From contig CAVVYR010000008.1 in the NCBI GenBank assembly GCA_963752475.1, positions 544,001 through 608,000 of the forward strand: a stretch of 64,000 nt of DNA, given 5' to 3'. The notes under the pieces are model-generated. The model saw nothing but the letters and a program-made list of their open reading frames with translations, was not told the origin of the DNA and searched no databases. The translations under genes were made by a program, and so were the position numbers. Shown piece by piece: positions 32,307 through 49,115 of this stretch. The stretch is from an uncultured Chloroflexia bacterium. Its GTDB lineage: Bacteria; Chloroflexota; Limnocylindria; Limnocylindrales; CSP1-4. Positions within the stretch are counted from its first letter, which is position 1; each line of letters begins with the position of its first letter.

Positions 32307-32379
32307 GCGGGCCGGGTCCGCCAGTGGCTTGACGCGGTCCAGGCGGCCATGGCTGGGGCCGCGCGTCATCGCCTCCCGC
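32307..32379 (-). ncRNA. c-di-GMP-II-like riboswitch, copy 1
   Basis: P1 GCGGG/CCCGC; K-turn-like GAUGA; pseudoknot CCGCC/GGCGG; 23 nt before ATG. Confidence 0.75.
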
Positions 32380-32431
32380 TAACTACGATTCTCTCTCGCG
32401 CGTCCATCAAGGCCGCCTGAGCAGCGTCCGA

Positions 32432-32478
32432 AATCGCCATGTATAACGGGTCTCGGTCTGATCGTTGCCGCCATGGCG
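32432..32478. repeat. Site B1
   Basis: AATCGCCATGTATAACGGGTCTCGGTCTGATCGTTGCCGCCATGGCG. Confidence 0.85.
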
Positions 32479-32703
32479 CAGGCAGCCGAGGTGACGATGG
32501 GCTAGTCCATGGGGTCAGGCTCGGTGGTGACCGGAACCGGAGCCTCTGGGAACGCCAGCATGTCGCCCTCGAAGACGTAGCCCTCATAGGAGACATCGGT
32601 CGGGCTTGGCATCCGCACCCCCGGTCCCCAGGGCACGGCGTGCAATCCCTCGTAGGCACCTTCGCCGGTCAACTCGTAGAAGCTGTACTTGCCGTGGGAG
32701 CTA

Positions 32704-33875
32704 GTGCCTCATGCCGCAATGGCGGGGAGCGAATGATGGACCTCGGCCTTGATGCGCCAGGGCTTGGCTGGGCGGCAGTTCCGGTTGTGCCAGCGGAGGT
32801 AGGCATGGATGGCCGCACCCTGCTCGTCGTGGCTGGCGTGGTCGCTGCCGTTGAGCGCGAAGCGCCGGAGGGCCTGGAACTGGCACTCGATGAGGTTGAG
32901 CCAGCTCGCGTAGGTGGGCAGGTACACGAGTTCGATGTCGTGCGCGTCGGCCCACTCGCGGAGCTCCTTCTTGAGATGCGGGCTGAAGTTGTCGAGCACC
33001 ACGATGAGGTGCTCGTCGAAGCGGGCCCGCAGCGAGCGCAGCAGCTCGCGCACCTCGCGCCAGGTCTTGGTCGCCCGGATGTGGCCGTAGAGCTTGCCGC
33101 TCGCGGGATCGTAGGCCGCGAGCAGCTGGCGCACGCCCGCGGTGCGCGTGTAGGTGGCCCGGAGGCGGGCCGGGTGCTTGCTCGGATGCCAGCCCGCTCC
33201 GAGGCGTGGCTGCAGGTTCAAGGGGCCGAACTCGTCGAGGCAGAGCACCCGGCTGCCCGCGGGCGGATGGGCGTAGAGGTCGAGCACGCGGTTCTTCTTG
33301 GCCTCGAAGTCCGGATCGGGCGAGGCCTTCGGGGTCTTGTGGTGCAGGAAGCGGATGCCATGCTCACGCAGGATGCGCCGGAGCTGGCTCCCGCTGATGG
33401 TCGGCACCACTCGCGTCCGGAGCAGGTGGTCGCGCAGCTTGGTCAGACTCCAGTCGGTGAAGGGCTCACCGAGGTCTCGGGGACGGGCGAGAGCCACCTT
33501 CACGATGGCCGCGCGCTGGGCCTCATCGATCCGGCGTGGTCGGCCCCCGCCCTTCCGAGGGTCCAGGGCCGCGAAGCCCCGCTCGTCGAAGGCGTGGATG
33601 AGTTCGGCCACGTGCGTCGCGCTGGCGCGGTGCAGCCGCGCGATCTCGGGCACGCTCTGGCCCTGGAACGAGGCGAAGAGGAGCATCGCCCGGTGCTGCG
33701 TGGTCGGGTTCGTACTGCGACGAGCGAGCCTGAGCAGGTGCATCGCCTCCCCATCGCTGAGCTCACGGATGAACAACTCGGGCCGGCGGGCCATCTGCAC
33801 CTCCCTGCGACGACGGGCCGAGGGTCGACCCTTGCGACAGTGCGATTACCTACCGGACATTATGAATCGAGGCAC
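32704..33875 (-). mobile_element. IS630-family insertion sequence
   Basis: TA duplication (32702-03 and 33876-77) within CTAG; terminal inverted repeat GTGCCTC, extending imperfectly to ~25 bp. Confidence 0.92.
32709..33800 (-). CDS. IS630 transposase
   Basis: HTH, GGGRP, WSL..L, CLDE, VLDNFSPH, LPTYASWLN.IE. Confidence 0.93.
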   Translation of the reverse strand: MQMARRPELFIRELSDGEAMHLLRLARRSTNPTTQHRAMLLFASFQGQSVPEIARLHRASATHVAELIHAFDERGFAALDPRKGGGRPRRIDEAQRAAIVKVALARPRDLGEPFTDWSLTKLRDHLLRTRVVPTISGSQLRRILREHGIRFLHHKTPKASPDPDFEAKKNRVLDLYAHPPAGSRVLCLDEFGPLNLQPRLGAGWHPSKHPARLRATYTRTAGVRQLLAAYDPASGKLYGHIRATKTWREVRELLRSLRARFDEHLIVVLDNFSPHLKKELREWADAHDIELVYLPTYASWLNLIECQFQALRRFALNGSDHASHDEQGAAIHAYLRWHNRNCRPAKPWRIKAEVHHSLPAIAA

Positions 33876-34303
33876 TAGCGATCAATCGCCCGGTGCCACT
33901 CCAACTCCCGACCTCATCCACCAACAGATGGTTGGTCGCGATGGTGGTCCATCCCCACTCGTCGGCAGGATGGGACACCGACTGGTGGTCCAGGGTGAAC
34001 CAGTGCTCGGCGGGGAGTCGTGGGTCGCTCCACTCGACTCGCTGCTCGATGAGGTCCACCCGGCCGCCGCTGGTCACCTCGTAGTCCCCCACGATGGTCG
34101 GCGGGTCTGGCTCGATGTCCTCCCAGTCCCGTGCTTCGGTGTGCACCGTCATGTCCCATGGGAACCCGGTCACGAAGGTGATGGGGCCAGGTCCCTCTGA
34201 CTGCGCAGCCGCCGTGATGAGCAGGCTGGCGAGCAGGACAAGAGCGGATGCCCCCGCCAGTACTGTCCGCAATGTACGCATCTCGCACCTCCTGGGTGCA
34301 TGC

Positions 34304-34378
34304 GCGGGCCGGGTTCGCCAGTGGCTCGGCGCGACTCAGGCGGCCAACGTACGCGAGTCGGACTTCACGGCCTCCCGC
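34304..34378 (-). ncRNA. c-di-GMP-II-like riboswitch, copy 2
   Basis: Same fold; inner stem shows compensatory GACUC/GAGUC. Confidence 0.75.
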
Positions 34379-34418
34379 TACCGATGATTCTCTCGCGAGC
34401 GTCCATCGGCAATCCCGA

Positions 34419-34463
34419 AATCGCCATGAATAGCGGGTTTGGTCTGGTCGTCGCCGCCATGGC
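34419..34463. repeat. Site B2
   Basis: AATCGCCATGAATAGCGGGTTTGGTCTGGTCGTCGCCGCCATGGC. Confidence 0.9.
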
Positions 34464-34490
34464 ACAGGCAACCGAGGCGGCCAGAAAGGG

Positions 34491-35372
34491 TTACTCGGCG
34501 GGCTTGGCCTCCGTCGTCCCGTCAACATCCGTCAGCGTGGCGCTCTCCACAACCGCAGGCTCGTCCGATGCGTTTCGGATCACATAGACCGTGTCGCCCG
34601 CGAATGAACCCGACGTGAGAATGTCGGCATCGGGCGCGATGAACCTGACCGAGTCGGTCAGCGCCCCGTCGACCTCGGATGGGGCAGCGAAGCCGCTCTC
34701 CAAGCGACCCTCTTCAAGCGCCAGGAGGCGCAGCACCCCGGCTTCGTCAGAGTCAAGCACCAGCTGGCCGCCGGGATCGAACGTGATTCGTTCGAGGATG
34801 ACCGCGACCGGGGCACTGATCAGCTCGGTCAGGGTCTCCTCGGCCGGGAAGTCCCAGACCAGCAACTGGTAGTCAGCACCCGGAGCAGGCTCCCTCGGTG
34901 TCTGCGGCTCAATGCTGTTGGCGATGCCCACGATGAACGATACGTACGGTTCCGTACCGTCGATCACCCACGAGCCCGAAGCCGCGCCGTCGTAGTACAG
35001 CACCACGTCACCAGCACCGAGGGCGATGGTGGCCATCGGGTCCGGAGCTCCATCGGAGCCGTCCTCACCCCAGAGGTGTGCCCGCGTGTCCTTCACGACC
35101 TGCGCGCTCCCTTGCTCCACGTACTCGACGTAGGTGTAGCCCGCTGGTTCCTCCGACCCTTCCTCAGCGCTGCTGCTCGGCTCGACCATGACACGCGCGA
35201 ACCACGTGTGATCGACATCCGGGGGTATGGCTTCCACAGGGATGACACCGCGGTCGCTCAGGACATCGACGTCGACGCCGGACGTACCTCCTTCTGCCGC
35301 GACCGCAGGCCCGAGACTGAGAACCAGCATCGTGAGAGCGGTGCCCGCGAGGCACTGACGTACGGTACGCAT
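34491..35372 (-). CDS. Secreted acidic protein, probable double cupin-like fold
   Basis: MRTVR signal peptide; 'YVEQGS','LGAGDVV' and 'RITFDPG','LEEGRL','RNASDEPA'. Confidence 0.7.
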   Translation of the reverse strand: MRTVRQCLAGTALTMLVLSLGPAVAAEGGTSGVDVDVLSDRGVIPVEAIPPDVDHTWFARVMVEPSSSAEEGSEEPAGYTYVEYVEQGSAQVVKDTRAHLWGEDGSDGAPDPMATIALGAGDVVLYYDGAASGSWVIDGTEPYVSFIVGIANSIEPQTPREPAPGADYQLLVWDFPAEETLTELISAPVAVILERITFDPGGQLVLDSDEAGVLRLLALEEGRLESGFAAPSEVDGALTDSVRFIAPDADILTSGSFAGDTVYVIRNASDEPAVVESATLTDVDGTTEAKPAE

Positions 35373-35389
35373 GGATCCCCCTTTCCAGC

Positions 35390-35462
35390 GCGGGCCGGGT
35401 TCGCCAGTGGCTCGGCGCGGCTCAGGCGGCCATGGTGTGGGCCGTGCGTCGTCGCCTCCCGC
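35390..35462 (-). ncRNA. c-di-GMP-II-like riboswitch, copy 3
   Basis: Conserved P1, pseudoknot and 3' GAGCCACUGGCGAACCCGGCCCGC. Confidence 0.75.
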
Positions 35463-35501
35463 TCAGTTGATTCTCTCGCGGGCGTCCAACGGTTCGCACG
35501 A

Positions 35502-35547
35502 AGTCGCCATGAATAGCGGGTTATGTCTGGTCGTCGCCGCCATGGCG
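35502..35547. repeat. Site B3 (TTATGTCTGGT variant)
   Basis: AGTCGCCATGAATAGCGGGTTATGTCTGGTCGTCGCCGCCATGGCG. Confidence 0.9.
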
Positions 35548-35583
35548 CCCGTGCGTCCGGCAGCCGAAGGCGGTGCGAGGGGG

Positions 35584-36135
35584 TTACTCGGCAGGCGGCA
35601 AGACCCACTCTGGTGGCTCGGGCCAAGCGCCGGGGATGATGACCCCCTCGACCTCCCAACCACCGGGAGCCGGACGCTGGATTAGCATGGCCGAGAGGCC
35701 CTCGTACCCATGCTCACCGGTGAAGTAGTTCACGTAGTGGCTGACTCCGGTGCCCGGCGTGAAGCCCTGACCCGCCATGGTCCAGGAACCGCCGTCGTTC
35801 GTCAGGCGTCCGATGAGCGTGCGCACCGTGGCCCCGGAGCCGTAGACGTCATAGTTGGAGTTCGCCTCCAACTCTCCGCTCAACCGCGGGTCGTCGGTCT
35901 CCAGGCTCAACGTCCAGCCGTAGTTCCGCGTGGACGCGACCATCGGCTGCGGCGAAGTCTCGGTCTGGGCGGACTGGTTCGGGGCGACGGCGCGGATGGT
36001 GCCGGTGACGACGGCGGGCGCGAGAACATCGGCTTCCGAAGCCGGGTCAGCATCCCGCGCCACGCCGGTGACGCTCGACGGTCCGAGCAGCGCCAGGGCG
36101 ACGGTCCCCACCAAGGACAACCGCAACGTACGCAT
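35584..36135 (-). CDS. Secreted 'SDPRL'-family paralog 3
   Basis: MRTLRLSLVGT signal; DDPRLSG, LTNDGGSW, GEHGYEGLSA. Confidence 0.85.
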   Translation of the reverse strand: MRTLRLSLVGTVALALLGPSSVTGVARDADPASEADVLAPAVVTGTIRAVAPNQSAQTETSPQPMVASTRNYGWTLSLETDDPRLSGELEANSNYDVYGSGATVRTLIGRLTNDGGSWTMAGQGFTPGTGVSHYVNYFTGEHGYEGLSAMLIQRPAPGGWEVEGVIIPGAWPEPPEWVLPPAE

Positions 36136-36153
36136 GACATCCCCCGTTCGTGT

Positions 36154-36226
36154 GCGGGCCGGGTTCGCCAGTGGCTCGGCGCGGTCCAAGGCGGCCATTG
36201 CTGGACCGCGCTTCGAAGCCTCCCGC
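36154..36226 (-). ncRNA. c-di-GMP-II-like riboswitch, copy 4
   Basis: Perfect 10-bp inner stem GCGCGGUCCA/UGGACCGCGC. Confidence 0.78.
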
Positions 36227-36275
36227 TATGTAGATTCTCTCGCCGACGTCCATCGGCTCCTCGGCCGTGCTCCAG

Positions 36276-36321
36276 AATCGCCATGCATAGCGGGTCATGC
36301 CTGGTGGTCGCCGCCATGGCG
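36276..36321. repeat. Site B4
   Basis: AATCGCCATGCATAGCGGGTCATGCCTGGTGGTCGCCGCCATGGCG. Confidence 0.85.
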
Positions 36322-36347
36322 CAGGCAGCTGGGGTGGGGGAATGGGG

Positions 36348-36947
36348 TCAGCCGAAGAAGACCGCGTCGATCAGCGCGAGCAGTGCGAACAGGGCGACGG
36401 GCAGCACCACGATTCCCAGCGCGATCAGGATCAGGAGTTCTCGGTCCGGGCGGCGAATCCCCTTGCTGCGGCGTCGGATGATGCTCCCGACCCTGTCGCC
36501 GAAGGCGGCGCCGATCGAGACCGTCACGAGCGCAGCGACGATGCCGTCGGGGATGTCGTCCTCGGGAAAGCCGAGTCGGCCACCGATACCGGTACTGAGG
36601 GCGAATCCGACGAGGGCTGCCGCCGCCATGGCGCCGATGAGACCGACCACACCGAGGCGTCGTCGTGGGGACGGCGAGTGCCCGATGATTCCCGCCGGGA
36701 CGACCGCGATGAGGATGCAGGCTGCCCAGAGGGTGATGGTCTCAGCAGACAGACCCCGGTAGCACCCCCAGCACTCCGGGTCGTCGTATCCGGGTTCGTA
36801 GAACTCCTGGATCATGTCCACCCACGCCGCTCCGAGCACGAGGCCGAGGACGAGGCAGAGTGCCGCTGCTACCGCGATGGCCGCGATGATTCGCCCGACG
36901 CCCGCAATCGGATCGACGCTGGTCCCACCCACGGGACGAGGTGCCAT
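36348..36947 (-). CDS. Hypothetical membrane protein (~5 TM) cassette
   Basis: Hydrophobic segments; CWGC motif in the first loop. Confidence 0.65.
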   Translation of the reverse strand: MAPRPVGGTSVDPIAGVGRIIAAIAVAAALCLVLGLVLGAAWVDMIQEFYEPGYDDPECWGCYRGLSAETITLWAACILIAVVPAGIIGHSPSPRRRLGVVGLIGAMAAAALVGFALSTGIGGRLGFPEDDIPDGIVAALVTVSIGAAFGDRVGSIIRRRSKGIRRPDRELLILIALGIVVLPVALFALLALIDAVFFG

Positions 36948-37031
36948 GTCTGTCGCCCCTCCATCCACCGATCCGCCAATCCCGATCGTCGCCGGTGTCA
37001 GCGTCGGGTCAAGCAAGGTGCAGCCGTGCTA

Positions 37032-37049
37032 CGTCTCGTAGCCTCCCGC
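37032..37049 (-). ncRNA. Riboswitch remnant, copy 5 (5' end only)
   Basis: GCGGGAGGCUACGAGACG matches the 5' end of copy 11; the rest is missing. Confidence 0.6.
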
Positions 37050-37089
37050 TACCTACAATTCTCTCGCGGGCGTCCATCAGCCGACCCTG

Positions 37090-37135
37090 AATCGCCATGA
37101 ATAGCGGGTTTGGTCTGGTCATCTCCGCCATGGCG
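37090..37135. repeat. Site B5
   Basis: AATCGCCATGAATAGCGGGTTTGGTCTGGTCATCTCCGCCATGGCG. Confidence 0.9.
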
Positions 37136-37318
37136 GTTGACCGCGCTTCGATACTTAGGCACAGAAACGGGGGCACCCGGGGCGATGAGACGCTTCCTGT
37201 CCCGACGGCCAGATCCAGAGCGTCGCTTCGTCGAGCTCCTCGAGCGCGCTCGCGTGATGACGGATCCTTCATGGCGCGACCACGCCACGTCCGACGAGCA
37301 GCTCGCGATCAGGGCGCA

Positions 37319-37933
37319 CTAGCCGCCCAGCTGGTACCTGCCCCGCTCCAGCTCCTGGACGTCGGGGCAGAAGTCGCCGCCCTCCTGCCCTTCGGTGGAG
37401 GCGATGCCCACGAAGTACAGATCGTCCGGGTCGCCCACCAGCTTGCGATCGACGGTCAGCGTCAGGATCGTTCCCTCGACCTCGACGTCGACGACGCCCC
37501 AGAACACCGGGTCGCCCTCGGTCAGCGTCGCGTCGAACAGCGGGGCACCGGACACGGCCTCCTGCTCGAGCGTGGCTCCATGGACGACGAGGACGTGGGT
37601 GATGTCATCGGGGAAGACCGCCGCCGGATCGGCCGACAGGCCGACCCACAGCTCATCCGTCGACATCGTCTCGACGTCATACGAGAGCGGTGGCTCCGCG
37701 GCGAACTCGAAGGTGAAGCTGACGAGGGATTGCCAGGGTTCAGCGATGCTGCAGGACAAGAAGTCGGGCCCTGCGCCGCCAGGGACGTCGCCGACGGGGT
37801 CCTCGTAAACCGCCAGCGGGACGATCGGCGCGTCGGTCGGCTCCGGCTCGACCTCGGCGGCAGCCACCCCGGTCGCGCTCGCCAGCACGAGCGCAGCGGC
37901 GGCCGTCAGGATCCTCGATATCAGGGTCATCAT
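37319..37933 (-). CDS. Secreted acidic hypothetical protein
   Basis: Signal peptide; 'DPVGD.....PD' and C-terminal 'D.CPD' motifs; GGAGG RBS. Confidence 0.75.
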   Translation of the reverse strand: MMTLISRILTAAAALVLASATGVAAAEVEPEPTDAPIVPLAVYEDPVGDVPGGAGPDFLSCSIAEPWQSLVSFTFEFAAEPPLSYDVETMSTDELWVGLSADPAAVFPDDITHVLVVHGATLEQEAVSGAPLFDATLTEGDPVFWGVVDVEVEGTILTLTVDRKLVGDPDDLYFVGIASTEGQEGGDFCPDVQELERGRYQLGG

Positions 37934-37946
37934 CCCCTCCTGTCAC

Positions 37947-38014
37947 GTTCCGCAAGTGGCGTGGCGCGGTCTGGGGCGACCGTGGTCGACGGGCCGTGCG
38001 TCATCGCCTCCCGC
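37947..38014 (-). ncRNA. Degenerate riboswitch, copy 6 (3' P1 strand lost)
   Basis: 5' two-thirds conserved; CCGG-CCCGC missing. Confidence 0.6.
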
Positions 38015-38064
38015 TACACCCAATTCTCTCGCGGGCGTCCATCAACCACCCTTGAACAGCACGG

Positions 38065-38110
38065 AATCGCCATGAATAGCGGGTTTGGTCTGGTCGTCGC
38101 CGCCATGACG
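38065..38110. repeat. Site B6
   Basis: AATCGCCATGAATAGCGGGTTTGGTCTGGTCGTCGCCGCCATGACG. Confidence 0.9.
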
Positions 38111-38136
38111 CAGGCAGCCGAGGCGGCGCGCTGGGA

Positions 38137-39042
38137 CTACTGCTCCGGGTGAAGCTGGTAGTTGAGGAAGGCCTCGGTCAGCTCCCAGGTTGCCTGCTCC
38201 TGGAGGATCTGATCTTCGCCATGCCCGGTCGGCAACTCGGCGTAGACGTATTCGATGCCTGCGGCTCCGAGTGCATCAGCGAGGTTGCGAGATGCCTCGA
38301 TGGACACCACGCCGTCTAGGTTGCCATGGAGGACGAGCATGGGAACGGTGTCCTCATCGACGTGGAACATGGGCGAAGCCTCCTGAGCGATGGTCGGGTC
38401 GGCCTCGATCTCAGCGACCGGGATCGCCTCGTGCCAGGCGTCCCGGAGCCACTCCGGCTCGGGGATGGTCAGGTCTACGTTGCCAGCAGTCGTGATGACG
38501 CACTGCACCCGGCTGGAGATGCCGGCCAGCTCTGGATCGGAGTCATCGACGGTGTCGAGGACGCCAAGCATGGCCGCGAGGTGTCCGCCGGATGAGTCGC
38601 CGACCGCGCAGACGCGGTCCGGGTCGACGTTGTACTCGTCCGCGTGGGCACGAACCCAGCGGACCACTCGTTGTGCGTCATGGAGCTGTGCCGGCCAGCG
38701 CACCTCGCCCGTGGCCTGGTCGAGCAGCCGATAGCCGGCGAGGAAGGTGACGTACGGCTCGCCGAACCCACTTCCAGCAGCCATGTCGCCGAACGGTGCC
38801 GCTCGTTCGGGCGTGATACCGACCTCGAGTGCGCCGCCGTGGAAGAAGATGAGCGCCGGGCGCGGCGCCTCGCGGGGTTCCGGCTGGTAGATGTGCGTGT
38901 ACTGGCGCAGCGGATCCTCCCCGTACACGACGAACTCCTCGACCTTGGGCCAGGTGTCGTCCTGTGCGACGACAGCACCTCCCACGCCTGCGAGCAGCGC
39001 GAGGATTGCCGTCCCGACAAGACACAGCCTCAACGTACGCAT
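38137..39042 (-). CDS. Secreted alpha/beta hydrolase (HSL/BD-FAE-type esterase)
   Basis: FHGGA, YRL, GDSSGGHLA, HG..D.VV; MRTLRLCLVGT signal. Confidence 0.88.
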   Translation of the reverse strand: MRTLRLCLVGTAILALLAGVGGAVVAQDDTWPKVEEFVVYGEDPLRQYTHIYQPEPREAPRPALIFFHGGALEVGITPERAAPFGDMAAGSGFGEPYVTFLAGYRLLDQATGEVRWPAQLHDAQRVVRWVRAHADEYNVDPDRVCAVGDSSGGHLAAMLGVLDTVDDSDPELAGISSRVQCVITTAGNVDLTIPEPEWLRDAWHEAIPVAEIEADPTIAQEASPMFHVDEDTVPMLVLHGNLDGVVSIEASRNLADALGAAGIEYVYAELPTGHGEDQILQEQATWELTEAFLNYQLHPEQ

Positions 39043-39059
39043 GCCATCTCCCTTCGTCA

Positions 39060-39131
39060 GCGGGCCGGGTTCGCCAGTCGCTGGGCGTGGCCTTGCGACC
39101 AGTGCTGGGACTGCGCGTCAGAGCCTCCCGC
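39060..39131 (-). ncRNA. c-di-GMP-II-like riboswitch, copy 7 (diverged)
   Basis: P1 intact; pseudoknot UCGC/GCGA. Confidence 0.65.
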
Positions 39132-39181
39132 TACGATCGGTTCTCGCGCGAGTGTCTATACGCTCCTCTGAGCGCTACCGG

Positions 39182-39227
39182 AATCGCCATGTATAGCGGG
39201 TTTGGTCTGATCGTCGCCGCCATGGCG
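39182..39227. repeat. Site B7
   Basis: AATCGCCATGTATAGCGGGTTTGGTCTGATCGTCGCCGCCATGGCG. Confidence 0.9.
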
Positions 39228-39285
39228 CAGGCAGCCGAGGCGAGCCTTGACCGGCGGAGGACTATGGAGGCACGCAGTTCGGGGC

Positions 39286-40482: not shown

Positions 40483-40509
40483 CGGGAGCCACGCAGCAGC
40501 CCCGCTCAG

Positions 40510-40555
40510 TATCGCCATGAATAGCGGGTTTGGTCTGGTCGTCGCCGCCAGGGCG
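40510..40555. repeat. Site B8 (no riboswitch or tail)
   Basis: TATCGCCATGAATAGCGGGTTTGGTCTGGTCGTCGCCGCCAGGGCG, between two convergent genes. Confidence 0.9.
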
Positions 40556-41522: not shown

Positions 41523-41543
41523 CTCGCGATCCCCCTTCGTGCC

Positions 41544-41569
41544 GCGGGTCTGGCGTCATCGCCTCCCGC
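41544..41569 (-). ncRNA. Internally deleted riboswitch, copy 8
   Basis: Both P1 strands retained; ~47 nt of core removed. Confidence 0.6.
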
Positions 41570-41618
41570 TACTGCTGATTCTCTCGCGGGCGTCCATCGT
41601 GTTCGAGCGCACTACCGG

Positions 41619-41664
41619 AATCGCCATGTATAGAGGGTTTGGTCTGGTCGTCGCCGCCATGGCG
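41619..41664. repeat. Site B9
   Basis: AATCGCCATGTATAGAGGGTTTGGTCTGGTCGTCGCCGCCATGGCG. Confidence 0.9.
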
Positions 41665-41690
41665 CGGGCAGCCGAGGCGGCGCGATGGGG

Positions 41691-42242
41691 TTACTCGGCG
41701 GCGTCCGGCTCCGGGACCTCCGGCACCTCGCTCGGGAAGATGACGCCCTCGAGGCTCAAAGCGGAAGGTTGCAGCACATTGCCCGTTTCGAGGACAACCA
41801 TCGCACTGAGTCCCTCATAGCCATCGCGGCCAGTGGGCGCCACCCATCGCACGGAACGTGGATCCCCGCGCAGATCGGTGAGGTAGCCATTGCCTTCACC
41901 CAGCCAACTGCCGCCGTCGTTGGTCAGCTCGTATGTGTGCGAGTCGATGGCGGTGTCGGAGCCGCCGTCCCAGTGCCAGGTGACGGTGCGCGTCACGGTG
42001 CCATTCAGACGAGGGTCACTCGTGCTCCAGACGCCGGCGACCGCTCCGGTGTTGATCGCGCCTCCCATATCGAGGATGACGAAGTCCCCGCCTACCTCCC
42101 GGCGTTCCCCTCTCATCAAGGCGCTCCCGGTCACCTCAGCAGCCTCCATGTTCGGCTCGTCCTGTGCCGCGACTCCGACCACCGAGCCGGCGAACAGGCC
42201 GAGCGCGAGGATGGAGATGGTGGTGGTCCTGATCGCCCGCAT
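41691..42242 (-). CDS. Secreted 'SDPRL'-family paralog 4 (no riboswitch)
   Basis: TSDPRLNG, LTNDGGSW, GRDGYEGLSA, LEGVIF. Confidence 0.85.
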   Translation of the reverse strand: MRAIRTTTISILALGLFAGSVVGVAAQDEPNMEAAEVTGSALMRGERREVGGDFVILDMGGAINTGAVAGVWSTSDPRLNGTVTRTVTWHWDGGSDTAIDSHTYELTNDGGSWLGEGNGYLTDLRGDPRSVRWVAPTGRDGYEGLSAMVVLETGNVLQPSALSLEGVIFPSEVPEVPEPDAAE

Positions 42243-42374
42243 GGGCAGTCTCCCTGCCCCCCGTGGTGGACGCGTCAAACCAAGCCCCCTCGCGTCCTCA
42301 CCACATAGAGGTCGCCAGACCCTCCAAGCGTTCCATCTTCTTGCGCCGCGGGCAGCCGAGGCGGCGCGATGGGG

Positions 42375-42908
42375 TTACTCGGCGAGCGGCACGGGCACTT
42401 CGGGCGCCGGTGGCGGTTCACCCTCGAAGATGACACCGTCGAACACGGTCTGGCCCTCCTCGACGACATGGGCCACGACACTCCAGCCGTCGTACGCACC
42501 CTCGCCTCGGAGCACACTGGTCACCGGCCAGGGGCGCTGGCGCCCGCTCGCGCGATACCAGGTGTTCGGCTCTTCCTGCCACGCTCCCTCGTCGTTCTCG
42601 ACCCGCATCGTCCCGTTCCAGAGGTTGAACCCCCCGGGGTCCGAGTGCTGGTCCCGGTTCGCGGCCCACGTGTACGTGCCCGAGAAGCGCGGGTCGCTGG
42701 ACTCGATGACGACGCCCGTCTCGATGACACCTCGGTACTCGACCAAGTCGTCGCCGAAGACGAACGTTCCCGGCTCGACGACCGTGTCGACGGTGGCCCT
42801 GGCCTGGAACTCGGTGACTGTCGGCTCCTCGGCTGTGGTCACTCCCGTTCCGACGACCGCCAGCATGAGCACAGACACCGCAGCCGCGAACGGCCTGATG
42901 GCGCGCAT
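42375..42908 (-). CDS. Secreted 'SDPRL'-family paralog 5
   Basis: SSDPRFSG, VENDEGAW, GEGAYDGW, FDGVIFEG. Confidence 0.85.
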   Translation of the reverse strand: MRAIRPFAAAVSVLMLAVVGTGVTTAEEPTVTEFQARATVDTVVEPGTFVFGDDLVEYRGVIETGVVIESSDPRFSGTYTWAANRDQHSDPGGFNLWNGTMRVENDEGAWQEEPNTWYRASGRQRPWPVTSVLRGEGAYDGWSVVAHVVEEGQTVFDGVIFEGEPPPAPEVPVPLAE

Positions 42909-42924
42909 GACATCCTCCTCATCC

Positions 42925-42998
42925 GCGGGCCGGGTTCGCCAGTGGCTCGGCGCGGTCCAGGCGGCCCTGGTGGTAGGCCGTGCGTCGCAGCCTCCCGC
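42925..42998 (-). ncRNA. c-di-GMP-II-like riboswitch, copy 9
   Basis: Full-length conserved unit, 16 nt before ATG. Confidence 0.75.
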
Positions 42999-43054
42999 TA
43001 GGTCCATTGTCTCGCGGGTGTCCATGGGCAGGCAGCCGAGGCGGCGCGATGGGC

Positions 43055-43960
43055 TTACTGGAGGAGCTCCATCACGGTCTCGATCGTGAGGTCGCCCGGC
43101 GTGATGTGGCCACCGGCGAACTCCACCAGCTCGACGTCGTACCCGGCTTCGGCGAGCACGGCCTCGAACGCGGCTGAGTTCTCCGGCGATACTGTCGAGT
43201 CATCCTCCCCGTGGACCAGCCGTACCCGCAGCTCAGGATGCACCCCGACCGCGCCGTAGAGCATCTCCCACAGCTCGGGTTCATGCTCCATCAGGAGGTC
43301 GCGGCCGTACCTGCCCTCGTAGCCCACGAAGGCGTCGTAGGCGCCCGCGACGCCCATGAAGCCATCGACACGGGTCGAGGCGTCGCTGGCCGTGCACTCG
43401 AACTGGGATGGCGGACCACCTGCGGACTCGGCGTACTCGTCCCACACGCGGTCGAAGTCCTCTCCGACGAGCGCGACATGTGCCGGCGGTCCGCCATCCA
43501 GCGACCACCCGGTCAACACCAGCGGCGCCGTCTCGCTGCCGTACTCCGAGCCACGGGCGAAGCGCACGGCGCAGGCCACGGCCTCCACGGCCGCGCGGAC
43601 GACCGTCGGGTCCGCATGGAGCACGACCTCCGACCACTGGAGCGGGGGCGAGCCGGTCACGAAGACGGACACACCCTGCTCGGCCAGTGCCTTCGAATTC
43701 ACCGCCGACCCGCCTACGCTGACGACCATGGGTGCATCCTCGCTCTCGGCAGTGACGTGGACACGGAGCTTCAGCTCGGTCCCCTCACCATCCGGTGAAC
43801 TTCCCGTGGCGTAGACGAGGTCCTTGATGACCGAGACCTCGGCCGGAGAGTCCGATGTCGCACCAGCTGACTCGTCGCCGTCGGTCTGGGCAGCCACGCC
43901 GAGCGGCAGCATGGCCACCGCCACGGCCACCCCCGCCAACACTGCTCGCGGCGTTCGCAT
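43055..43960 (-). CDS. Secreted alpha/beta hydrolase
   Basis: GWSLDG nucleophile elbow, HG.DD, GGH; MRTPR signal. Confidence 0.8.
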   Translation of the reverse strand: MRTPRAVLAGVAVAVAMLPLGVAAQTDGDESAGATSDSPAEVSVIKDLVYATGSSPDGEGTELKLRVHVTAESEDAPMVVSVGGSAVNSKALAEQGVSVFVTGSPPLQWSEVVLHADPTVVRAAVEAVACAVRFARGSEYGSETAPLVLTGWSLDGGPPAHVALVGEDFDRVWDEYAESAGGPPSQFECTASDASTRVDGFMGVAGAYDAFVGYEGRYGRDLLMEHEPELWEMLYGAVGVHPELRVRLVHGEDDSTVSPENSAAFEAVLAEAGYDVELVEFAGGHITPGDLTIETVMELLQ

Positions 43961-43978
43961 GACACTCCCCCTTCATGT

Positions 43979-44053
43979 GCGGGCCGGGTTCGCCAGTGGC
44001 TCAGCGTGGTCCAGGCGGCCAACGTCGAGGAGCCGCGCGTCAGCGCCTCCCGC
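43979..44053 (-). ncRNA. c-di-GMP-II-like riboswitch, copy 10
   Basis: Full-length conserved unit. Confidence 0.73.
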
Positions 44054-44104
44054 TACTGATGATTCTCTCGCGTGCGTCCACCGGCTCGATGGGCACTCGT
44101 CCAG

Positions 44105-44150
44105 AATCGCCATGAATAGCGGGTTATGTCTGGTGGTCGTCACCATGGCC
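44105..44150. repeat. Site B10 (TTATG variant)
   Basis: AATCGCCATGAATAGCGGGTTATGTCTGGTGGTCGTCACCATGGCC. Confidence 0.88.
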
Positions 44151-44229
44151 AATCACGCCGCCGGGCCGTCCGGCCCTTGACCCGCTGAGCGGGGCGCGGA
44201 GGATAGGGTCGCGAGCCAGGAGGGGGAAC

Positions 44230-45492
44230 GTGATGTCCAAGCGAGGCGGGGCCTTGGCGCCGACGCTGCCGCGGATTCTGCTGGCGCTCCTGGCCATGCC
44301 CCTGGCGCTCGCGGCGAGCGCGGGCGCGCCCCACGCCGCCGCTGAGCCCGTGGATGCGATGCCTACGATCACGCTTGTCGAGCAGCGTGTAATCAGAATC
44401 GCGGACAGTCAGTTGCTCTCGCTGTCGCCTGACGGTGGCTCGATCGTCGTCACCCGACCAGCTGGGCCGATGCCAACCGAGCTCTGTATCCACGAGGTGG
44501 CGACGCTCGCCGTGCGCATCTGCGCGGACGTCAGTGACCTCGATGCGGGCCTCTGGCCCGACAGCGTGGTCTGGTCACCCGACAGTGCGTGGCTGGCCTT
44601 CGCCGAGCTGTGGCCCATGTTCTTGGTCGATGGCGACCTGTGGCTCATGGACGCCTCCACTGGTGCGCTCGGCAACTTGCTCGACGATGGCTTCAGCGGC
44701 GCCCTGGGGGAAGCGGCTGCAGGCGAACTCACCTGGAAGGGCGTCATCACGCTGCCGATGTACCCGACGTTCACGCCTGACAGCGCCGCGGTGACGTTCT
44801 CGCGGACCACGGTCCAGGCCGGCGAGTTCAGCGGTGTTGGGGACATCGCAACGCTCCCCATCACCGGTGGCGATGCGGTCACGCTGGGCGGTTCCGAACG
44901 CGAGGAGTTGGTCGGCGAGTATCGCACCATGCAGTGGGCAGCAGACGGATCCGCCCTCTATGTCTCCCTCGTCGACCAGCAGGCTTCAAGGCTCGGACCT
45001 GACAGCGGGATCTGGGTGTTCGAGGCTGATGGAAGGCACGCCCGCCAACTCCTGAGCATCACTGGCCGCGACGACTGGCCGACGCGCATCTTGGCGGTGT
45101 CCCCGCGTGGGGAGCGCCTCCTCGTATCGGACCCGAGGGCGGCCGCGGGCGGCGCCCCGCTATGTGCTTGCTCGGTGGTCGATGGCTCGACCGGAGCCGC
45201 GGAGCCCATCGAGCCGCTGGGATCGGAAGCCCGCCAGTCCACGCCCATCACCGGGGCGATGCTCTCGCCGGATGGGTCGCTGGTGATCACGGTCTCAGGC
45301 CATCTCGAGAAGCAGGTGGCCGTCCGGGAGGTGGCAACGTCGAACGAGACGGTCCTGCTACGGGAGCCGTCTGGGACCGCCCCATCGGACCTCGCGGGCG
45401 AGGTCCTGACCTGGGCCCAGGACGACACGGTGCTGGTCGATGGAGCCAGACGCGGCCGCGGTACGCTGATCGTCCTCGACCGGGGAAGCTAG
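44230..45492 (+). CDS. Secreted TolB/WD40-like beta-propeller protein
   Basis: Signal peptide; LSPDG, WSPDS, FTPDS, LSPDG blades; GGAGG RBS. Confidence 0.8.
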   Translation: MMSKRGGALAPTLPRILLALLAMPLALAASAGAPHAAAEPVDAMPTITLVEQRVIRIADSQLLSLSPDGGSIVVTRPAGPMPTELCIHEVATLAVRICADVSDLDAGLWPDSVVWSPDSAWLAFAELWPMFLVDGDLWLMDASTGALGNLLDDGFSGALGEAAAGELTWKGVITLPMYPTFTPDSAAVTFSRTTVQAGEFSGVGDIATLPITGGDAVTLGGSEREELVGEYRTMQWAADGSALYVSLVDQQASRLGPDSGIWVFEADGRHARQLLSITGRDDWPTRILAVSPRGERLLVSDPRAAAGGAPLCACSVVDGSTGAAEPIEPLGSEARQSTPITGAMLSPDGSLVITVSGHLEKQVAVREVATSNETVLLREPSGTAPSDLAGEVLTWAQDDTVLVDGARRGRGTLIVLDRGS

Positions 45493-45585
45493 GGCAGAGC
45501 CTGGCAGCGACGTCGTCGGGGCCAAGCCTGCGACAAGCCGTGCGGCTGCCAAGAGGCGTCAAGCTCCGCCTAGACGGTCGTGTGG

Positions 45586-45631
45586 GATCGCCATGAATAG
45601 CGGGTTTGGTTTGGTCGTCGCCGCCATGGCG
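45586..45631. repeat. Site B11 (no riboswitch)
   Basis: GATCGCCATGAATAGCGGGTTTGGTTTGGTCGTCGCCGCCATGGCG, between convergent genes. Confidence 0.9.
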
Positions 45632-45660
45632 CAGGCCGCCGAGGCGAAGCGATGGGGCTG

Positions 45661-46860
45661 CTACTCGATGGCCGATGCAGCGTCCGGGGTGATCACGTAG
45701 GTCTCGATGCTGTCCCGGGCCAGGCCGAGCGTCTGGAGCTCGGTCCCATCTTCAAGGGTCACGACGTCCCCATCGGATGTGGATGCGGCCCTGACCCACA
45801 CGTTGCCATCAACGTCGATATCGATCTCCTGGACGCACCGGTCCGTCAGGAAGCGACGCCAGGTCGTGCCATCGAAGCGGCCGAGACCGTCGCAGGAGAC
45901 CAGGTGCGAGCACATGACCCCGCAGGGCTGCTCGGTCTTGAAGGACGCCCACAGACTGCCATCCGGCCCCAGCACGCCAGGGTTCCACCACGCGGACGTC
46001 GTGCCACCGACGGGTAGGGGCACCTCGAGTCGCTGCTTGTCGCCGTTCTCTTTCAAGGAGCGGATGACGATGCTCTCGCCGCCGAGCGCCAGGGTCCGGA
46101 CTGCACCGTCGCTTCCGATGACGAAACCGTATCCTGGCAACCCTGCCACGGGCATCCAGCCATCGTCGGTGAGGCGGCTCACGGCCGTCTTCCGGCGCAG
46201 CCACAGCGCACCGTCCGGGGCCACGTCCCACGACCTGATGTTGTTGGCCTTCGGCTTGTCCGCCGGGTGCTTGGGCAGGCGGGTCCAGGAGTCGCCTTCG
46301 AGACGCAGGAATCGACCGCCGCCCGGGCGATCGGTCTCCCTCAAGGCCCACACGGTGCCATCGGGTTGGAGGCGGAAGTCGAGACCCTCGTACACGTTGC
46401 CCGTGCGCTTGAGCCGCGGCCGCCAAGCGGTACCGTCATGCGAGTAGAGGGTCCAGCGGACGGGCCGGCCTTCCACGGTCCCGTCATGGGCGACGATCCA
46501 CGGCGTGCCATCCGATCCGACCTGGACCGGCCACGGGACGTTCTCCCGCGTCCGCCCGTCCGGGTAGGGAAGCTCCTGCTCTGCACCCAACTCGAGGAGA
46601 TCCCGGTCCCCCATGAGCCACACGCTGCCATCAAGGCCGATGGCCAACTCATCGTTCAGGCCGCTCCTCCCGATCGATCCCGCAAGCTCTCGAACACCGC
46701 CCCCAAGGACCCGTAGGACACCCGGTTCGACCTCCTCGGTCACCAGGCCCGCGAGCAGCCCGCCGGTACCGCTCTGGCCGCTGGCCTCTTGCCCCGCTGC
46801 GGCAGTGCTCGAGGTCAGGACCAAGGCAAGCGTCAACGCCGTCGCGATACGTGCACGCAT
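45661..46860 (-). CDS. Secreted beta-propeller protein (DG.VW repeats)
   Basis: Signal peptide; repeated 'DG(S/T).W' and 'FDG..W'. Confidence 0.8.
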   Translation of the reverse strand: MRARIATALTLALVLTSSTAAAGQEASGQSGTGGLLAGLVTEEVEPGVLRVLGGGVRELAGSIGRSGLNDELAIGLDGSVWLMGDRDLLELGAEQELPYPDGRTRENVPWPVQVGSDGTPWIVAHDGTVEGRPVRWTLYSHDGTAWRPRLKRTGNVYEGLDFRLQPDGTVWALRETDRPGGGRFLRLEGDSWTRLPKHPADKPKANNIRSWDVAPDGALWLRRKTAVSRLTDDGWMPVAGLPGYGFVIGSDGAVRTLALGGESIVIRSLKENGDKQRLEVPLPVGGTTSAWWNPGVLGPDGSLWASFKTEQPCGVMCSHLVSCDGLGRFDGTTWRRFLTDRCVQEIDIDVDGNVWVRAASTSDGDVVTLEDGTELQTLGLARDSIETYVITPDAASAIE

Positions 46861-46877
46861 GACGTCCCCTCTTGCAT

Positions 46878-46953
46878 GCGGGCCGGGTTCGCCAGTGGCT
46901 CGGCGCGGTCCAAGGCGGCCAACGTACACAGGCCGCGTCTCGTAGCCTCCCGC
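46878..46953 (-). ncRNA. c-di-GMP-II-like riboswitch, copy 11
   Basis: Full-length conserved unit. Confidence 0.73.
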
Positions 46954-46992
46954 TACCTACGATTCTCTCGTGGGCGTCGACCGCGATCACAG

Positions 46993-47038
46993 ATCCGCCA
47001 TGAATGGCGGGTTTGGTCTGGTCGTCGCCGCCATGGCG
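46993..47038. repeat. Site B12
   Basis: ATCCGCCATGAATGGCGGGTTTGGTCTGGTCGTCGCCGCCATGGCG. Confidence 0.88.
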
Positions 47039-47064
47039 CCGGCAGGCGAAGCGGCGCATGGGAA

Positions 47065-47097
47065 CCCCGCCCCCGGTCCTCCACGCCGGGGGCGGGG
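47065..47097. terminator. Strong GC hairpin (no U-tract)
   Basis: CCCCGCCCCCGG-9 nt-CCGGGGGCGGGG. Confidence 0.4.
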
Positions 47098-47162
47098 CCT
47101 ACAGGGGGGTGCCTGGTTGACAAGTCCTGAGCGCCGCAGGCAGCCGAATCGGCGCGATGGGG

Positions 47163-47732
47163 TCACTCGGCAGGCGGTCCTGGCAGCGGTGGCAGTCCGC
47201 TCTCGATGATCCAGCCTTCATACTGCTCGTCCCACGGTCCGTCGGGGTCGTGGTCGGGCGCACCTCGCAGCAGGGCGTGCATGTCCTCGTAGGCCCCGTC
47301 ACCCTCCAGAACGTAGTAGCTGTAGTGCCGCTCCGGGTCGGGACCGTAGCCCTGCTTGATGGCCCGCCCGGTGCCATGCCAGCGGCCCTCAGAGCCGTCC
47401 AGCAGGACGTTCATCTCGGTGACCATCACGAAGTAGTCCTCGATGGCCTCCACGTCGACCTCCTCGCCCTCGAGTTCGGGCGGCACGTCACCATAGAGGT
47501 ACCAGGCACCCTCGACCTCGAGCGTCGGCGGCAGGCGCGGGTCGCTCCACTCCACGGTCTGCTCCCACGTGGCGCGGCCCTCGTCCTCGGTCGCGGAGTC
47601 ATTGGTGTCACCGACCGCCGTGCCGGTGACGAAGACGGCGCGGACCGCCTCCTTGTTCATCTGCGCGGCGACCGCGACCGTGGAACCGAAGACCAGCGCC
47701 ACGGCGACGGCGACCACCCATGGCGTACGCAT
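47163..47732 (-). CDS. Secreted 'SDPRL'-family paralog 6
   Basis: EWSDPRLP, GRWHGTG, GDGAYE, YEGWIIE. Confidence 0.85.
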   Translation of the reverse strand: MRTPWVVAVAVALVFGSTVAVAAQMNKEAVRAVFVTGTAVGDTNDSATEDEGRATWEQTVEWSDPRLPPTLEVEGAWYLYGDVPPELEGEEVDVEAIEDYFVMVTEMNVLLDGSEGRWHGTGRAIKQGYGPDPERHYSYYVLEGDGAYEDMHALLRGAPDHDPDGPWDEQYEGWIIESGLPPLPGPPAE

Positions 47733-47750
47733 GACATCCCCCTTCCTTCT

Positions 47751-47824
47751 GCGGGCCGGGTCCGCCAGTGGCTCGGCGCGGTCCAAGCGGCCATGGTGGT
47801 GGGCCGTGCGTCATCGCCTCCCGC
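47751..47824 (-). ncRNA. c-di-GMP-II-like riboswitch, copy 12
   Basis: Full-length unit with GGCGG pseudoknot strand. Confidence 0.75.
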
Positions 47825-47898
47825 TACGTCAGATTCTCCACCTGGCGGCAATCAAGGTCTCCTGACGAGCCGAAGGCAGCCCCGGCGGCGCGATGGGG

Positions 47899-49023
47899 TC
47901 ACTCAGGGAACGTCTGCATCCCTTCGGTCGTGACCGACTCCGGCTGGGCCGGGAACACCATCGGGTCGGTCTCGAAGATGTAGCCCTCGTACGAGTGGTC
48001 GAGTGGTCCGCTGGCATCTGCACCCGGAGTCATACGCAACACGGCCCAGAGTCCGTCGTAGGCGCCCTCGCCGGTCAGTTCGTAGAGGCTGTAGCGGTGG
48101 TCGAGACCCTCGACCGCTCGACCGGTACCCCGCCAACTTCCCTCAGGGCCTTCCAGCAGGTTGCTGGTCGTGACGGCCATCGCGCCCTCCGGAGGCCCCT
48201 GCGCCTCTCGCGGGTCGAGGATGAAGGCGAGGTTCATGTTCATCCAGTGCTGCGATGGCAGGCGCGGGTCGCTCCATTCGATGACTTGCTCGATGACCCC
48301 GTAACTCTCAGCGCCGACCAACCAGCCCCCCACCTCGTGGGGTGGTCCTTCGACGATGGTGTTCGCCCCCGGGTGGTCGTACTGCTCGACCACGGTCCCG
48401 GTGACGAAGGTGACGGGAGCCGGTTCCTCGTCCTGCTCGGCCAGAGTCGCGGACAGAGGCAGCTCGATGGGGTCAGGCATCGGCGGCACCTCGCTCTCGA
48501 AGACGTAGCCGTCGTAGATGCTCGTGACGTGGCCGTCAGCATCGATGACCGGGTTGCCGCCAGCATCCACCACGAGCGACCCTTCGAGCATCGCCCAGAG
48601 ACCTTCGTACGCACCGCTGCCGGTGAGGACATACAGCCCGACCGACGACTCCGGGTCCACGAGCGAGTACTCCGTCCCGGCCCAGTCACCCTCCTCGCCG
48701 ACCAGCCGGACGGCGACGGCGAATGCTCCGACAGCGCCGTCTTCGAGTTCGTGCCAGTTGGCGTTGGTGTCGTACAAGAACCGCGACGGCAGACGCGGGT
48801 CACTCCACTCGACGGTGCGCTCGGTCAGCACGCCGCGCGAGTAGTGCACGTCACCGTCCTCCCACTCTACGGGTTCCGAAGTCATGGACGTGCTCAGCTG
48901 TGTGCCGGTGACGTGGGTCGCAGACGGCGCTTCGCCATCGTCCTGAGCCGTGACGAGCACGGCCAGACCGCCGACCAAGGCGAGCACGACCATCCCGGAC
49001 AGGGTATGCAGCAACGTTCGCAT
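47899..49023 (-). CDS. Secreted 'SDPRL'-family paralog 7 (two tandem domains)
   Basis: EWSDPRLP and G.GAY.GLWA each occur twice. Confidence 0.88.
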   Translation of the reverse strand: MRTLLHTLSGMVVLALVGGLAVLVTAQDDGEAPSATHVTGTQLSTSMTSEPVEWEDGDVHYSRGVLTERTVEWSDPRLPSRFLYDTNANWHELEDGAVGAFAVAVRLVGEEGDWAGTEYSLVDPESSVGLYVLTGSGAYEGLWAMLEGSLVVDAGGNPVIDADGHVTSIYDGYVFESEVPPMPDPIELPLSATLAEQDEEPAPVTFVTGTVVEQYDHPGANTIVEGPPHEVGGWLVGAESYGVIEQVIEWSDPRLPSQHWMNMNLAFILDPREAQGPPEGAMAVTTSNLLEGPEGSWRGTGRAVEGLDHRYSLYELTGEGAYDGLWAVLRMTPGADASGPLDHSYEGYIFETDPMVFPAQPESVTTEGMQTFPE

Positions 49024-49040
49024 GAGGTCCCCTCGCTTGA

Positions 49041-49115
49041 GCGGGTCGGGTTCGCCAGTGGCTCGGCGCGGTCCGGGCGGCCATGATCGAGGAGTCGCGC
49101 TTCATCGCTTCCCGC
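49041..49115 (-). ncRNA. c-di-GMP-II-like riboswitch, copy 13 (A/C/A pocket variant)
   Basis: GCGGGAAGCGAUGAA...GGCGAACCCGACCCGC; closest to the canonical consensus. Confidence 0.78.

Follow-up and report, generated by a model that had tools for sequence, protein, structure and literature searches.

Riboswitches of the second class that bind cyclic diguanosine monophosphate (c-di-GMP) are the closest described relatives of the RNAs reported here. In Clostridioides difficile, 4 of them are listed beside 12 class I c-di-GMP riboswitches and presented as ON switches for adhesins and pili, in an account that also rates the class II aptamer as the less selective of the two classes and as tolerant of ligand analogues (PMC11477304). 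Class II aptamers also occur in tandem, with 59 doublets and 9 triplets reported (PMC9481103). The contacts of the binding pocket are taken from a 2026 structure paper (PMC13715770) that sets them out for the solved class II structure (3Q3Z): A13 forms the floor and A61 the ceiling, the A14-U60 pair lies beneath the ligand backbone, A69 reads one guanine and G73 the other, and A70 intercalates between both. Rfam holds the class as c-di-GMP-II (RF01786) together with the variants c-di-GMP-II-GAG (RF03169) and c-di-GMP-II-GCG (RF03170) in one clan (CL00127). In this study, we analysed a stretch of 64,000 nucleotides from contig CAVVYR010000008.1 of an uncultured Chloroflexia bacterium (the window), in which a preliminary description made from the letters alone had noticed thirteen c-di-GMP-II-like copies between positions 32307 and 49115. 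We find a real, dense riboswitch array of known fold with a pocket outside the named Rfam variants, and, with a probability of about 0.55, we read its members from their sequence as translational switches for a cyclic dinucleotide, most likely c-di-GMP, that would act with ON logic over a regulon of secreted proteins.

Copy number and fold of the aptamers

The Rfam covariance models were run on the window with cmscan, as the preliminary description had suggested, using the gathering scores as cut-off and a looser pass at E ≤ 1. This gave 10 matches at or above the gathering score, all from the c-di-GMP-II clan and all on the minus strand, nine of them within 32307-49115. The looser pass added 39054-39136, whose 42.7 bits fall short of the 47.9 required for GCG, and 37951-38008, which is matched only in part with 26.3 bits. 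A model of our own, R1, was built from 11 full-length window copies and used to scan the whole window with filters off. It returned 11 matches of 59.8-95.3 bits, a twelfth at 37936-38017 with 38.9 bits and a thirteenth at 41541-41572 with 16.5 bits (E 0.27), while all remaining matches stayed at or below 14.6 bits and were regarded as noise. Combining the models with a reading of the sequence, the range 32307-49115 contains 10 intact and 3 decayed aptamers, so that the thirteen copies, ten of them full-length, had been counted correctly. An eleventh intact aptamer lies outside this range at 27463-27549, and the mean column identity among the 11 intact aptamers is 82%.

RF03170 is the best-scoring model for seven window copies, all on the minus strand like the others below: 32307-32379 (62.2 bits; R1 90.3 bits), 34304-34378 (52.6; 89.5), 35390-35462 (61.1; 86.6), 43979-44053 (62.4; 93.0), 47751-47824 (52.5; 95.3), 49041-49115 (60.5; 85.1) and, outside the array, 27469-27543 (61.2; 59.8). 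Three copies score best with RF03169, namely 36154-36226 (60.7; 93.4; copy 4 of the preliminary description), 42925-42998 (47.4; 88.5) and 46878-46953 (57.2; 88.9). The remaining intact copy, 39060-39131, has the loop GGTCGC and a score of 73.5 bits with R1; with 42.7 bits for RF03170 (match 39054-39136), it is the only one of the 11 intact copies that misses the cut-off of this family. The RF03169 cut-off (40 bits) is likewise passed by 10 of the 11, whereas RF01786 stays under its cut-off of 53.5 bits for every window copy, the best value being 52.0 bits (36148-36232). By score, the earlier assignment to a c-di-GMP-II variant is therefore supported, as both variant cut-offs are passed and the canonical one is missed.

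In the model alignments, the helices follow in the order P1 (GCGGG/CCCGC), an unpaired A, P2 (GGC/GCC), an internal loop and P3, whose loop (CCGCC) forms a pseudoknot with the tail GGCG(A/G). The internal loop between P2 and P3 has 6 nucleotides (nt) on one side and 3 nt on the other, with an invariant GA on either side, which we take to agree with the kink-turn (k-turn) of class II. Covariation was counted over 92 aptamers from the window genome and other records, in an alignment that was fitted to the model and is hence biased towards the structure: standard pairs fill 88.8% of the cells and 13 of the 21 pairs vary on both sides. None of 500 shuffles matched the observed values on any of five measures, and a control with the 3' partners slid gave pairing of only 29-40%. 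P1 is 94-97% paired and P3 86%, with two-sided change in all eight P3 pairs. Four pairs of the pseudoknot are 81-98% paired, and the fifth covaries (C-G 15, U-A 7, G-C 1) but reads A.C in 67 rows. Where the Rfam model extends P1 outwards, the window copies have non-standard pairs, and this outer part is not formed. With this helix order, internal loop and loop-tail pseudoknot, the window RNAs show the fold of clan CL00127 and belong to it. The full-length alignments bear out the class II architecture proposed earlier, and the compensatory stem changes proposed with it hold for P1 and P3, with one covarying pair in the pseudoknot.

The three decayed copies (minus strand) differ in what they have kept. 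The one at 37936-38017, recognised by R1, the partial Rfam match and sequence reading, retains the P1 5' strand, P2, the k-turn loop, P3 and its loop; its pseudoknot strand is mutated, and pocket and P1 3' strand are replaced. In the remnant at 41544-41569 (R1 and sequence reading), an internal deletion fuses the k-turn region to CCCGC, and P3, pseudoknot and pocket are gone. The 18-nt stub at 37032-37049, found by eye, consists of the P1 and P2 5' strands and the k-turn loop alone, behind a complete copy (37060-37142) of an upstream element described below. We take these three as a picture of aptamers without selection.

Pocket letters

Rfam's three clan members are inseparable by score alone, and therefore the pocket letters must be read. 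Letters outside the pocket decide which variant model wins, an example being the U that follows P2 in those three copies that score best with GAG. Besides, class II matches in five scanned Bacillota loci were reported under the GAG model, and one A/A example from a Bacillota isolate is placed under GAG by Rfam. Positions were mapped by spacing and by invariant letters of the variant consensus lines. Two of these letters serve as anchors, the A that follows P2 for position 61 and the G of CCG for position 73, and the spacing A61-(8)-A69-(4)-G73 is kept in the second RNA shown in PMC13715770 (A56, A64, G68). A single conserved 3' letter separates the consensus of GAG from that of GCG (..GGCGAG-A-CCG versus ..GGCGAG-C-CCG), which gives G69-A70 for GAG and G69-C70 for GCG. 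On the basis of these lines and of the contacts reported for A69, A70 and G73 in the structure described by PMC13715770, the variant names would most simply denote positions 69/70/73, the canonical state being A/A/G.

Mapped in this way, all ten intact array copies carry A69, C70 and G73; in 32307-32379 and 47751-47824, the letters 68-70 read G, A, C. All ten also keep A13 and A61 and have a G-C pair at 14-60, and position 74 is G in nine of them and A in 49041-49115. The canonical set A69/A70/G73 is thus absent from the array, where position 70 is C throughout. So are the GAG pocket (G69/A70/G73) and the GCG pocket (G69/C70/G73), since position 69 is G in both variant consensus lines and A in every array copy. 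Within the window, G/C/G occurs only at 27463-27549. On this mapping, the A/C/G pocket of the array is a fourth combination that matches no named Rfam variant. The preliminary description had read the three ligand-stacking adenosines (13, 70 and 74) as G/C/G in nine full copies and equated the array with c-di-GMP-II-GCG. Its C70 (10 of 10) and G74 (9 of 10) stand, but A13 is unchanged in all ten copies, the G sitting at position 14 paired with C60, and the equation with the GCG family fails on A69. A literature search found no paper giving the ligand of the GAG or GCG variants, in line with the earlier remark that the ligand of GCG is not settled.

Distribution in the genome and in related genomes

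The window genome (4.25 Mb, 38 contigs, 88.8% complete) contains about 36 copies of the motif, with 35 matches to RF03170 (33 over cut-off), 36 to RF03169 (34 over cut-off) and 33 to canonical RF01786, of which one, on another contig, just reaches 53.5 bits. Among 37 aligned genome rows, the pocket (positions 69/70) is A/C in 31, A/A in three, G/C and A/T in one each and decayed in one (gaps at 69/70). Aptamers with the pocket of the array are also found on nine other contigs.

Beyond this genome, a pattern scan with one genome per species, in which positions 68-70 were free and most 3' letters fixed, sampled the distribution without being a census. It gave at least 83 further aptamers, mostly in records titled Chloroflexia, Chloroflexota or Candidatus Limnocylindria/Limnocylindrales. 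Among the 83 matches listed, the pocket is G/A in 42, A/C in 26, A/A in seven, G/C in three, and A/T, A/G and gapped in one each, with two unparsed. In the same genus, 23 of 24 other genomes carry the motif in 1-31 copies each, several of them clustered, and none of 16 genomes of the sister family gave a motif match. Because of this occurrence within the genus, dense arrays are a genus trait, with the window genome at the top of the range; to call the locus exceptional, as had been done before, was overstated in view of the 35 RF03170 matches genome-wide and of up to 31, also clustered, in congeneric species. From 12 congeneric genomes, 20 top matches were fetched, of which 16 were parsed and 4 left out. 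Their pockets are A/C in 12, G/C in three and G/A in one, and the G/C ones resemble the copy at 27463. This G69/C70 copy (27463-27549) has a signature of its own (GGGAAGC, AGUGGCG, loop GGUCGCC) that recurs in loci L140, L150 and L151; it is the fetched top match in three sister genomes, two of which have a single RF03170 match. The G/C copy looks like an older lineage separate from the expanded A/C copies.

In other genomes, the leaders of the G/A type (L049, L046, L045, L058, L030, L053) often show GCGUCCC(G)G(A)GG downstream of P1 and ahead of the start codon; the UCCC in it may base-pair with GGGA of the P1 5' strand, a platform unlike that of the window genome.

Leader geometry and controlled genes

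The array is a run of genes for signal-peptide proteins, almost each with its own aptamer and promoter-like motif. At every intact copy, 16-23 nt separate the end of P1 from the start codon, and a G-rich Shine-Dalgarno sequence stands 3-10 nt beyond P1. Shine-Dalgarno positions were tabulated in 38 leaders with start codons set by a simple rule, so that a few are probably placed one ATG early. A terminator platform was ruled out, as the 16-23 nt between P1 and start codon leave no space for a terminator, and control is therefore to be sought at translation or mRNA stability.

Judged by eye, the products mostly start with a signal-peptide-like MRTLRLSL..A-Q-D/E. About 20 genome copies precede paralogs of a family of ~180 amino acids (aa) with SDPRL and YEGL motifs and 17-44% pairwise protein identity. 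No Pfam model was found for this family, and its language-model neighbours are unnamed Chloroflexota clusters in the Atlas. Its predicted fold is a beta-barrel with a predicted local distance difference test score (pLDDT) of 76.4; a Foldseek search of the model against the PDB gave no match at E ≤ 0.001, and the weak rows were small beta-barrels (a DUF3224 protein, an allene-oxide-cyclase-like protein and a Diels-Alderase). We treat the predicted beta-barrel fold as a lead only. The rest of the array includes two proteins of alpha/beta-hydrolase size and one RTX-repeat protein. In the genome, the aptamer-led products outside the family include a BD-FAE esterase, SRPBCC proteins, a methyltransferase, a small membrane protein and this RTX-repeat protein, the last behind a deleted aptamer.

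Members of the family are encoded at 31666-32283 (206 aa, putative secreted beta-barrel; after aptamer 32307-32379), 33853-34281 (143 aa, truncated; after 34304-34378), 35587-36135 (183 aa; after 36154-36226), 42378-42908 (177 aa; after 42925-42998), 47166-47732 (189 aa; after 47751-47824) and 47902-49023 (374 aa with two copies of the family domain; after 49041-49115). Signal peptides are also found in the products of 34494-35372 (293 aa, no Pfam match; after 35390-35462), 43058-43960 (301 aa, no Pfam match; after 43979-44053) and 45664-46860 (399 aa; after 46878-46953). The gene 38140-39042 behind aptamer 39060-39131 codes for a BD-FAE/alpha-beta hydrolase of 301 aa (PF20434, 1.5e-37). Behind the decayed copies lie the open reading frame (ORF) 36348-37016 (stub 37032-37049), the gene 37322-37933 (204 aa; 37936-38017) and the gene 40698-41522 for the RTX-repeat protein (PF00353, 3.3e-17; remnant 41544-41569). 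Outside the array, aptamer 27469-27543 precedes gene 27133-27429 for a 99-aa membrane protein with a match to DUF5658 (PF18902, E 2.2e-4) below the cut-off.

A further paralog of the family, 41691-42278 (minus strand), comes immediately after gene 42378-42908 and lacks an aptamer; the two genes probably share one transcript under the aptamer at 42925-42998. Transposase-like ORFs, recognised by eye, are present at 32709-33800 (minus strand) and at 48851-50386 (minus strand)/49211-51199 (plus strand). The truncated gene 33853-34281 is immediately followed by the former, which may be what cut it short, and the latter flank the upstream end of the array. Several aptamer-led genes on contigs C32 (14113), C31 (20350) and C14 (23191, 4772) look frameshifted or very short and may be pseudogenes or errors of the draft assembly.

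Upstream element, promoter-like motif and transcripts

A conserved intergenic element of ~100 nt fills the space between the stop codon of the preceding gene and a promoter-like motif, which lies 7-8 nt before P1. The alignment of copies, the nhmmer search and the upstream rows define it, for example, at 44064-44168 (minus strand), and further examples are 38025-38125 and 41580-41679. Within the window, the copies span 32390-49209 on the minus strand, and 14 of the 16 genome-wide nhmmer matches are on the window's contig. The element begins right after the ...AE stop of the upstream gene and contains two CATGGCG repeats as well as possible alternative hairpins. Copies without an intact aptamer are found at 45556-45646, 40506-40561 and 37060-37142, and the reverse complement of the element gives rise to spurious ORFs on the plus strand, whose peptides recur. 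The element may act as a terminator or an operator, or it may have arisen by homogenised duplication.

The bipartite motif, TGGAC-N8/9-GAGAAT or the form TTGTC...GACAAT, precedes most of the 36 genome copies and is kept even where the ~100-nt element is absent. An example from the array lies at 44061-44080, and the form TTGTC-N8-GACAAT is found on contigs C14 and C31. The spacing of only 8-9 nt between its halves led us to drop, by eye, an ordinary -35/-10 pair, and a sigma-54 promoter was likewise dropped by eye. The motif may point to a sigma factor or regulator devoted to the regulon. If GAGAAT is a -10 box, transcripts would start at P1. RNA covers the stretch with a few short contigs from three salt-marsh metatranscriptomes (three runs from three studies), in which uncovered parts are uninformative; contigs with 0-2 differing letters match parts of gene 45664-46860 in all three runs.

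Ligand and direction of control

We favour a cyclic dinucleotide as the ligand, with c-di-GMP as the most likely one. Of the class II pocket, five elements are kept, namely A13, A61, A69, G73 and Watson-Crick pairing at 14-60, and with both A69 and G73 intact, c-di-GMP would be the most likely ligand; the C in place of the intercalating A70 would then tune the affinity and leave the ligand unchanged. Production of c-di-GMP is indicated by the 7 GGDEF and 3 EAL domains that the same genome encodes beside 1 DAC domain; neither SMODS nor PilZ was found in its 88.8% complete sequence. GGDEF genes 2-3 kb from two aptamers and an EAL gene 9 kb from one (C6 589516-592189, C1 140450-150487) may be neighbours by chance; as a link, the GGDEF genes on C6 and C1 were discarded as too weak, with ~0.4 cases expected by chance in a rough count. 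Within this genome, A/C, A/A, G/C and A/T copies precede paralogous genes, and orthologous genes have an A/C aptamer here and a G/A aptamer elsewhere (SRPBCC 52%, methyltransferase 55% protein identity), which would speak for one common ligand. The contrast between aptamers with 82% mean column identity and paralogous proteins with 17-44% was counted as a sign of selection. Ligand binding would lock the C-rich 3' strand (A69-C79) into pocket and P1 and thereby turn expression ON, and in the ligand-free state this strand could pair instead with the G-rich Shine-Dalgarno sequence nearby. Among features that bear on the direction, only this C-rich strand, with the P1 5' strand and the Shine-Dalgarno sequence as alternative partners, is recurrent. 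When the 3' part is folded locally, the Shine-Dalgarno bases are paired with a probability of at least 0.5 in 21 of 34 copies.

Several results weigh against this reading. With start codons set by the simple rule mentioned above, predicted duplexes between the 3' segment and the region from Shine-Dalgarno to AUG have a mean of -9.18 kcal/mol in 33 riboswitch leaders versus -9.23 kcal/mol in 1396 other Shine-Dalgarno-bearing leaders of the same genome (p 0.55). A specific anti-Shine-Dalgarno helix failed this control and was given up, leaving a generic competition between C-rich and G-rich strands, and minimum-energy folds of the whole leaders gave no consistent partner for the Shine-Dalgarno sequence. 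An RNA-library contig identical to the window (42950-43100) crosses the putative transcription start of aptamer 42925-42998; it could stem from read-through from the upstream gene or from DNA carry-over. Furthermore, the C for A70 could change the ligand and not the affinity alone, and the definition of the variants, published in PNAS in 2017, reportedly took such pocket changes as signs of altered specificity.

The last of these points leads to a possible, though distinctly less probable, explanation: the A/C/G pocket senses another signal, such as 3'3'-cyclic GMP-AMP (cGAMP), c-di-AMP, pGpG or another dinucleotide, the A/A copies sense c-di-GMP, and the secretome stands under two signals. 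The replacement of the intercalating adenine by C70 is in favour of such a change, and with 31 of 37 genome copies and 12 of 16 parsed sister-species matches the C70 state looks selected rather than drifted. Ligand switches through pocket changes are, as far as described, known from other riboswitch classes, and in an engineered class II RNA a G-C pair at 14-60 is reported to have shifted the preference between cGAMP isomers (PMC13715770). Against it stand the unchanged guanine-reading bases A69 and G73, the orthologous genes under A/C, G/A or A/A aptamers in different genomes, and the lack of a detectable CD-NTase (SMODS) in the 88.8% complete genome; moreover, secreted and surface-type genes are the usual targets of c-di-GMP riboswitches in the account of PMC11477304. 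Still more speculative, and in our view rather unlikely, is an unrecognised fourth pocket class with dozens of copies per genome in one genus, in which A/C/G would bind not c-di-GMP but another dinucleotide, or would respond to c-di-GMP at a markedly different threshold, beside the few A/A copies and one G/C copy. If true, RNA alone would connect a whole secretome to two or three nucleotide signals, in a genome in which no PilZ receptor was found.

The same ligand could also act in the opposite direction, with the bound aptamer, 5-10 nt from the Shine-Dalgarno sequence, blocking 30S loading or shortening the life of the mRNA. The P1 end 16-23 nt before the start codon falls inside the ribosome footprint, the ON mechanism failed its control with 1396 leaders, and the Rfam consensus shows a longer P1, with C-rich 5' and G-rich 3' arms in which the Shine-Dalgarno sequence could be hidden. 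Such an extended P1 was rejected for the window copies, in which the outer pairs of the Rfam model are non-standard and not formed, and the class II switches characterised in PMC11477304 are ON switches; we consider OFF logic improbable. Far less credible still is the view that promoter and leader were duplicated as one cassette and homogenised by gene conversion within the array, with aptamers that are mere passengers and no longer sensors. The ~100-nt element is indeed almost confined to the array of the contig (14 of 16 nhmmer matches), and signal peptides and C-terminal residues are also conserved among the paralogs, as homogenised tandem duplication would give. Yet aptamers with the same pocket occur in other genomes and on nine other contigs, where the upstream sequence is unrelated beyond the short motif, the aptamer pairs covary, and the truly decayed copies have lost precisely pocket and P1. 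We retain translational switches for a cyclic dinucleotide, most likely c-di-GMP, with putative ON logic, as the working model.

Comparison with known systems

Three or four pocket states (A/C, A/A and G/C here, G/A in relatives) on one scaffold ahead of paralogous and orthologous genes amount to a natural mutational series, which is well suited to asking for the role of the intercalating base in variants whose ligands we did not find in print. About 36 genes are under this control, most of them for secreted proteins without database description, and RNA sensors, rather than PilZ proteins, may be the chief readers of a second messenger in this uncultured soil and sediment lineage. As a practical lesson, the pocket letters should be read, since score alone does not separate the members of the Rfam clan.

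Compared with canonical c-di-GMP-II (RF01786), the RNAs of the window have the same helices, k-turn-like loop and loop-tail pseudoknot, keep A13, A61, A69 and G73, and likewise stand in leaders of secreted or surface-type genes, here in a host with GGDEF and EAL enzymes. They differ by C instead of A70, by G-C instead of A14-U60 and by window scores that all stay under 53.5 bits. With the GCG family (RF03170) they share C70, whereas its conserved G69 is A in the 10 array copies, and the G/C pocket of this type is limited to 27463-27549 and to single-copy matches in three sister species. The GAG family (RF03169) is the top model for 3 array copies, but its pocket is G69/A70 in contrast to A69/C70 of the array; aptamers of GAG type stand ahead of the SRPBCC and methyltransferase orthologs found in other records of Chloroflexota. 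Whereas tandem class II aptamers place several aptamers in one leader (PMC9481103), the array has one aptamer per gene, gene after gene. The closest parallel at the level of the regulon is C. difficile, in which many, mostly surface or secreted, gene products are likewise tied to one second messenger via RNA sensors. There, the copy number is lower than the about 36 in 4.2 Mb found here, and the class II platform described in PMC11477304 is a terminator, while in the array the Shine-Dalgarno sequence adjoins P1.

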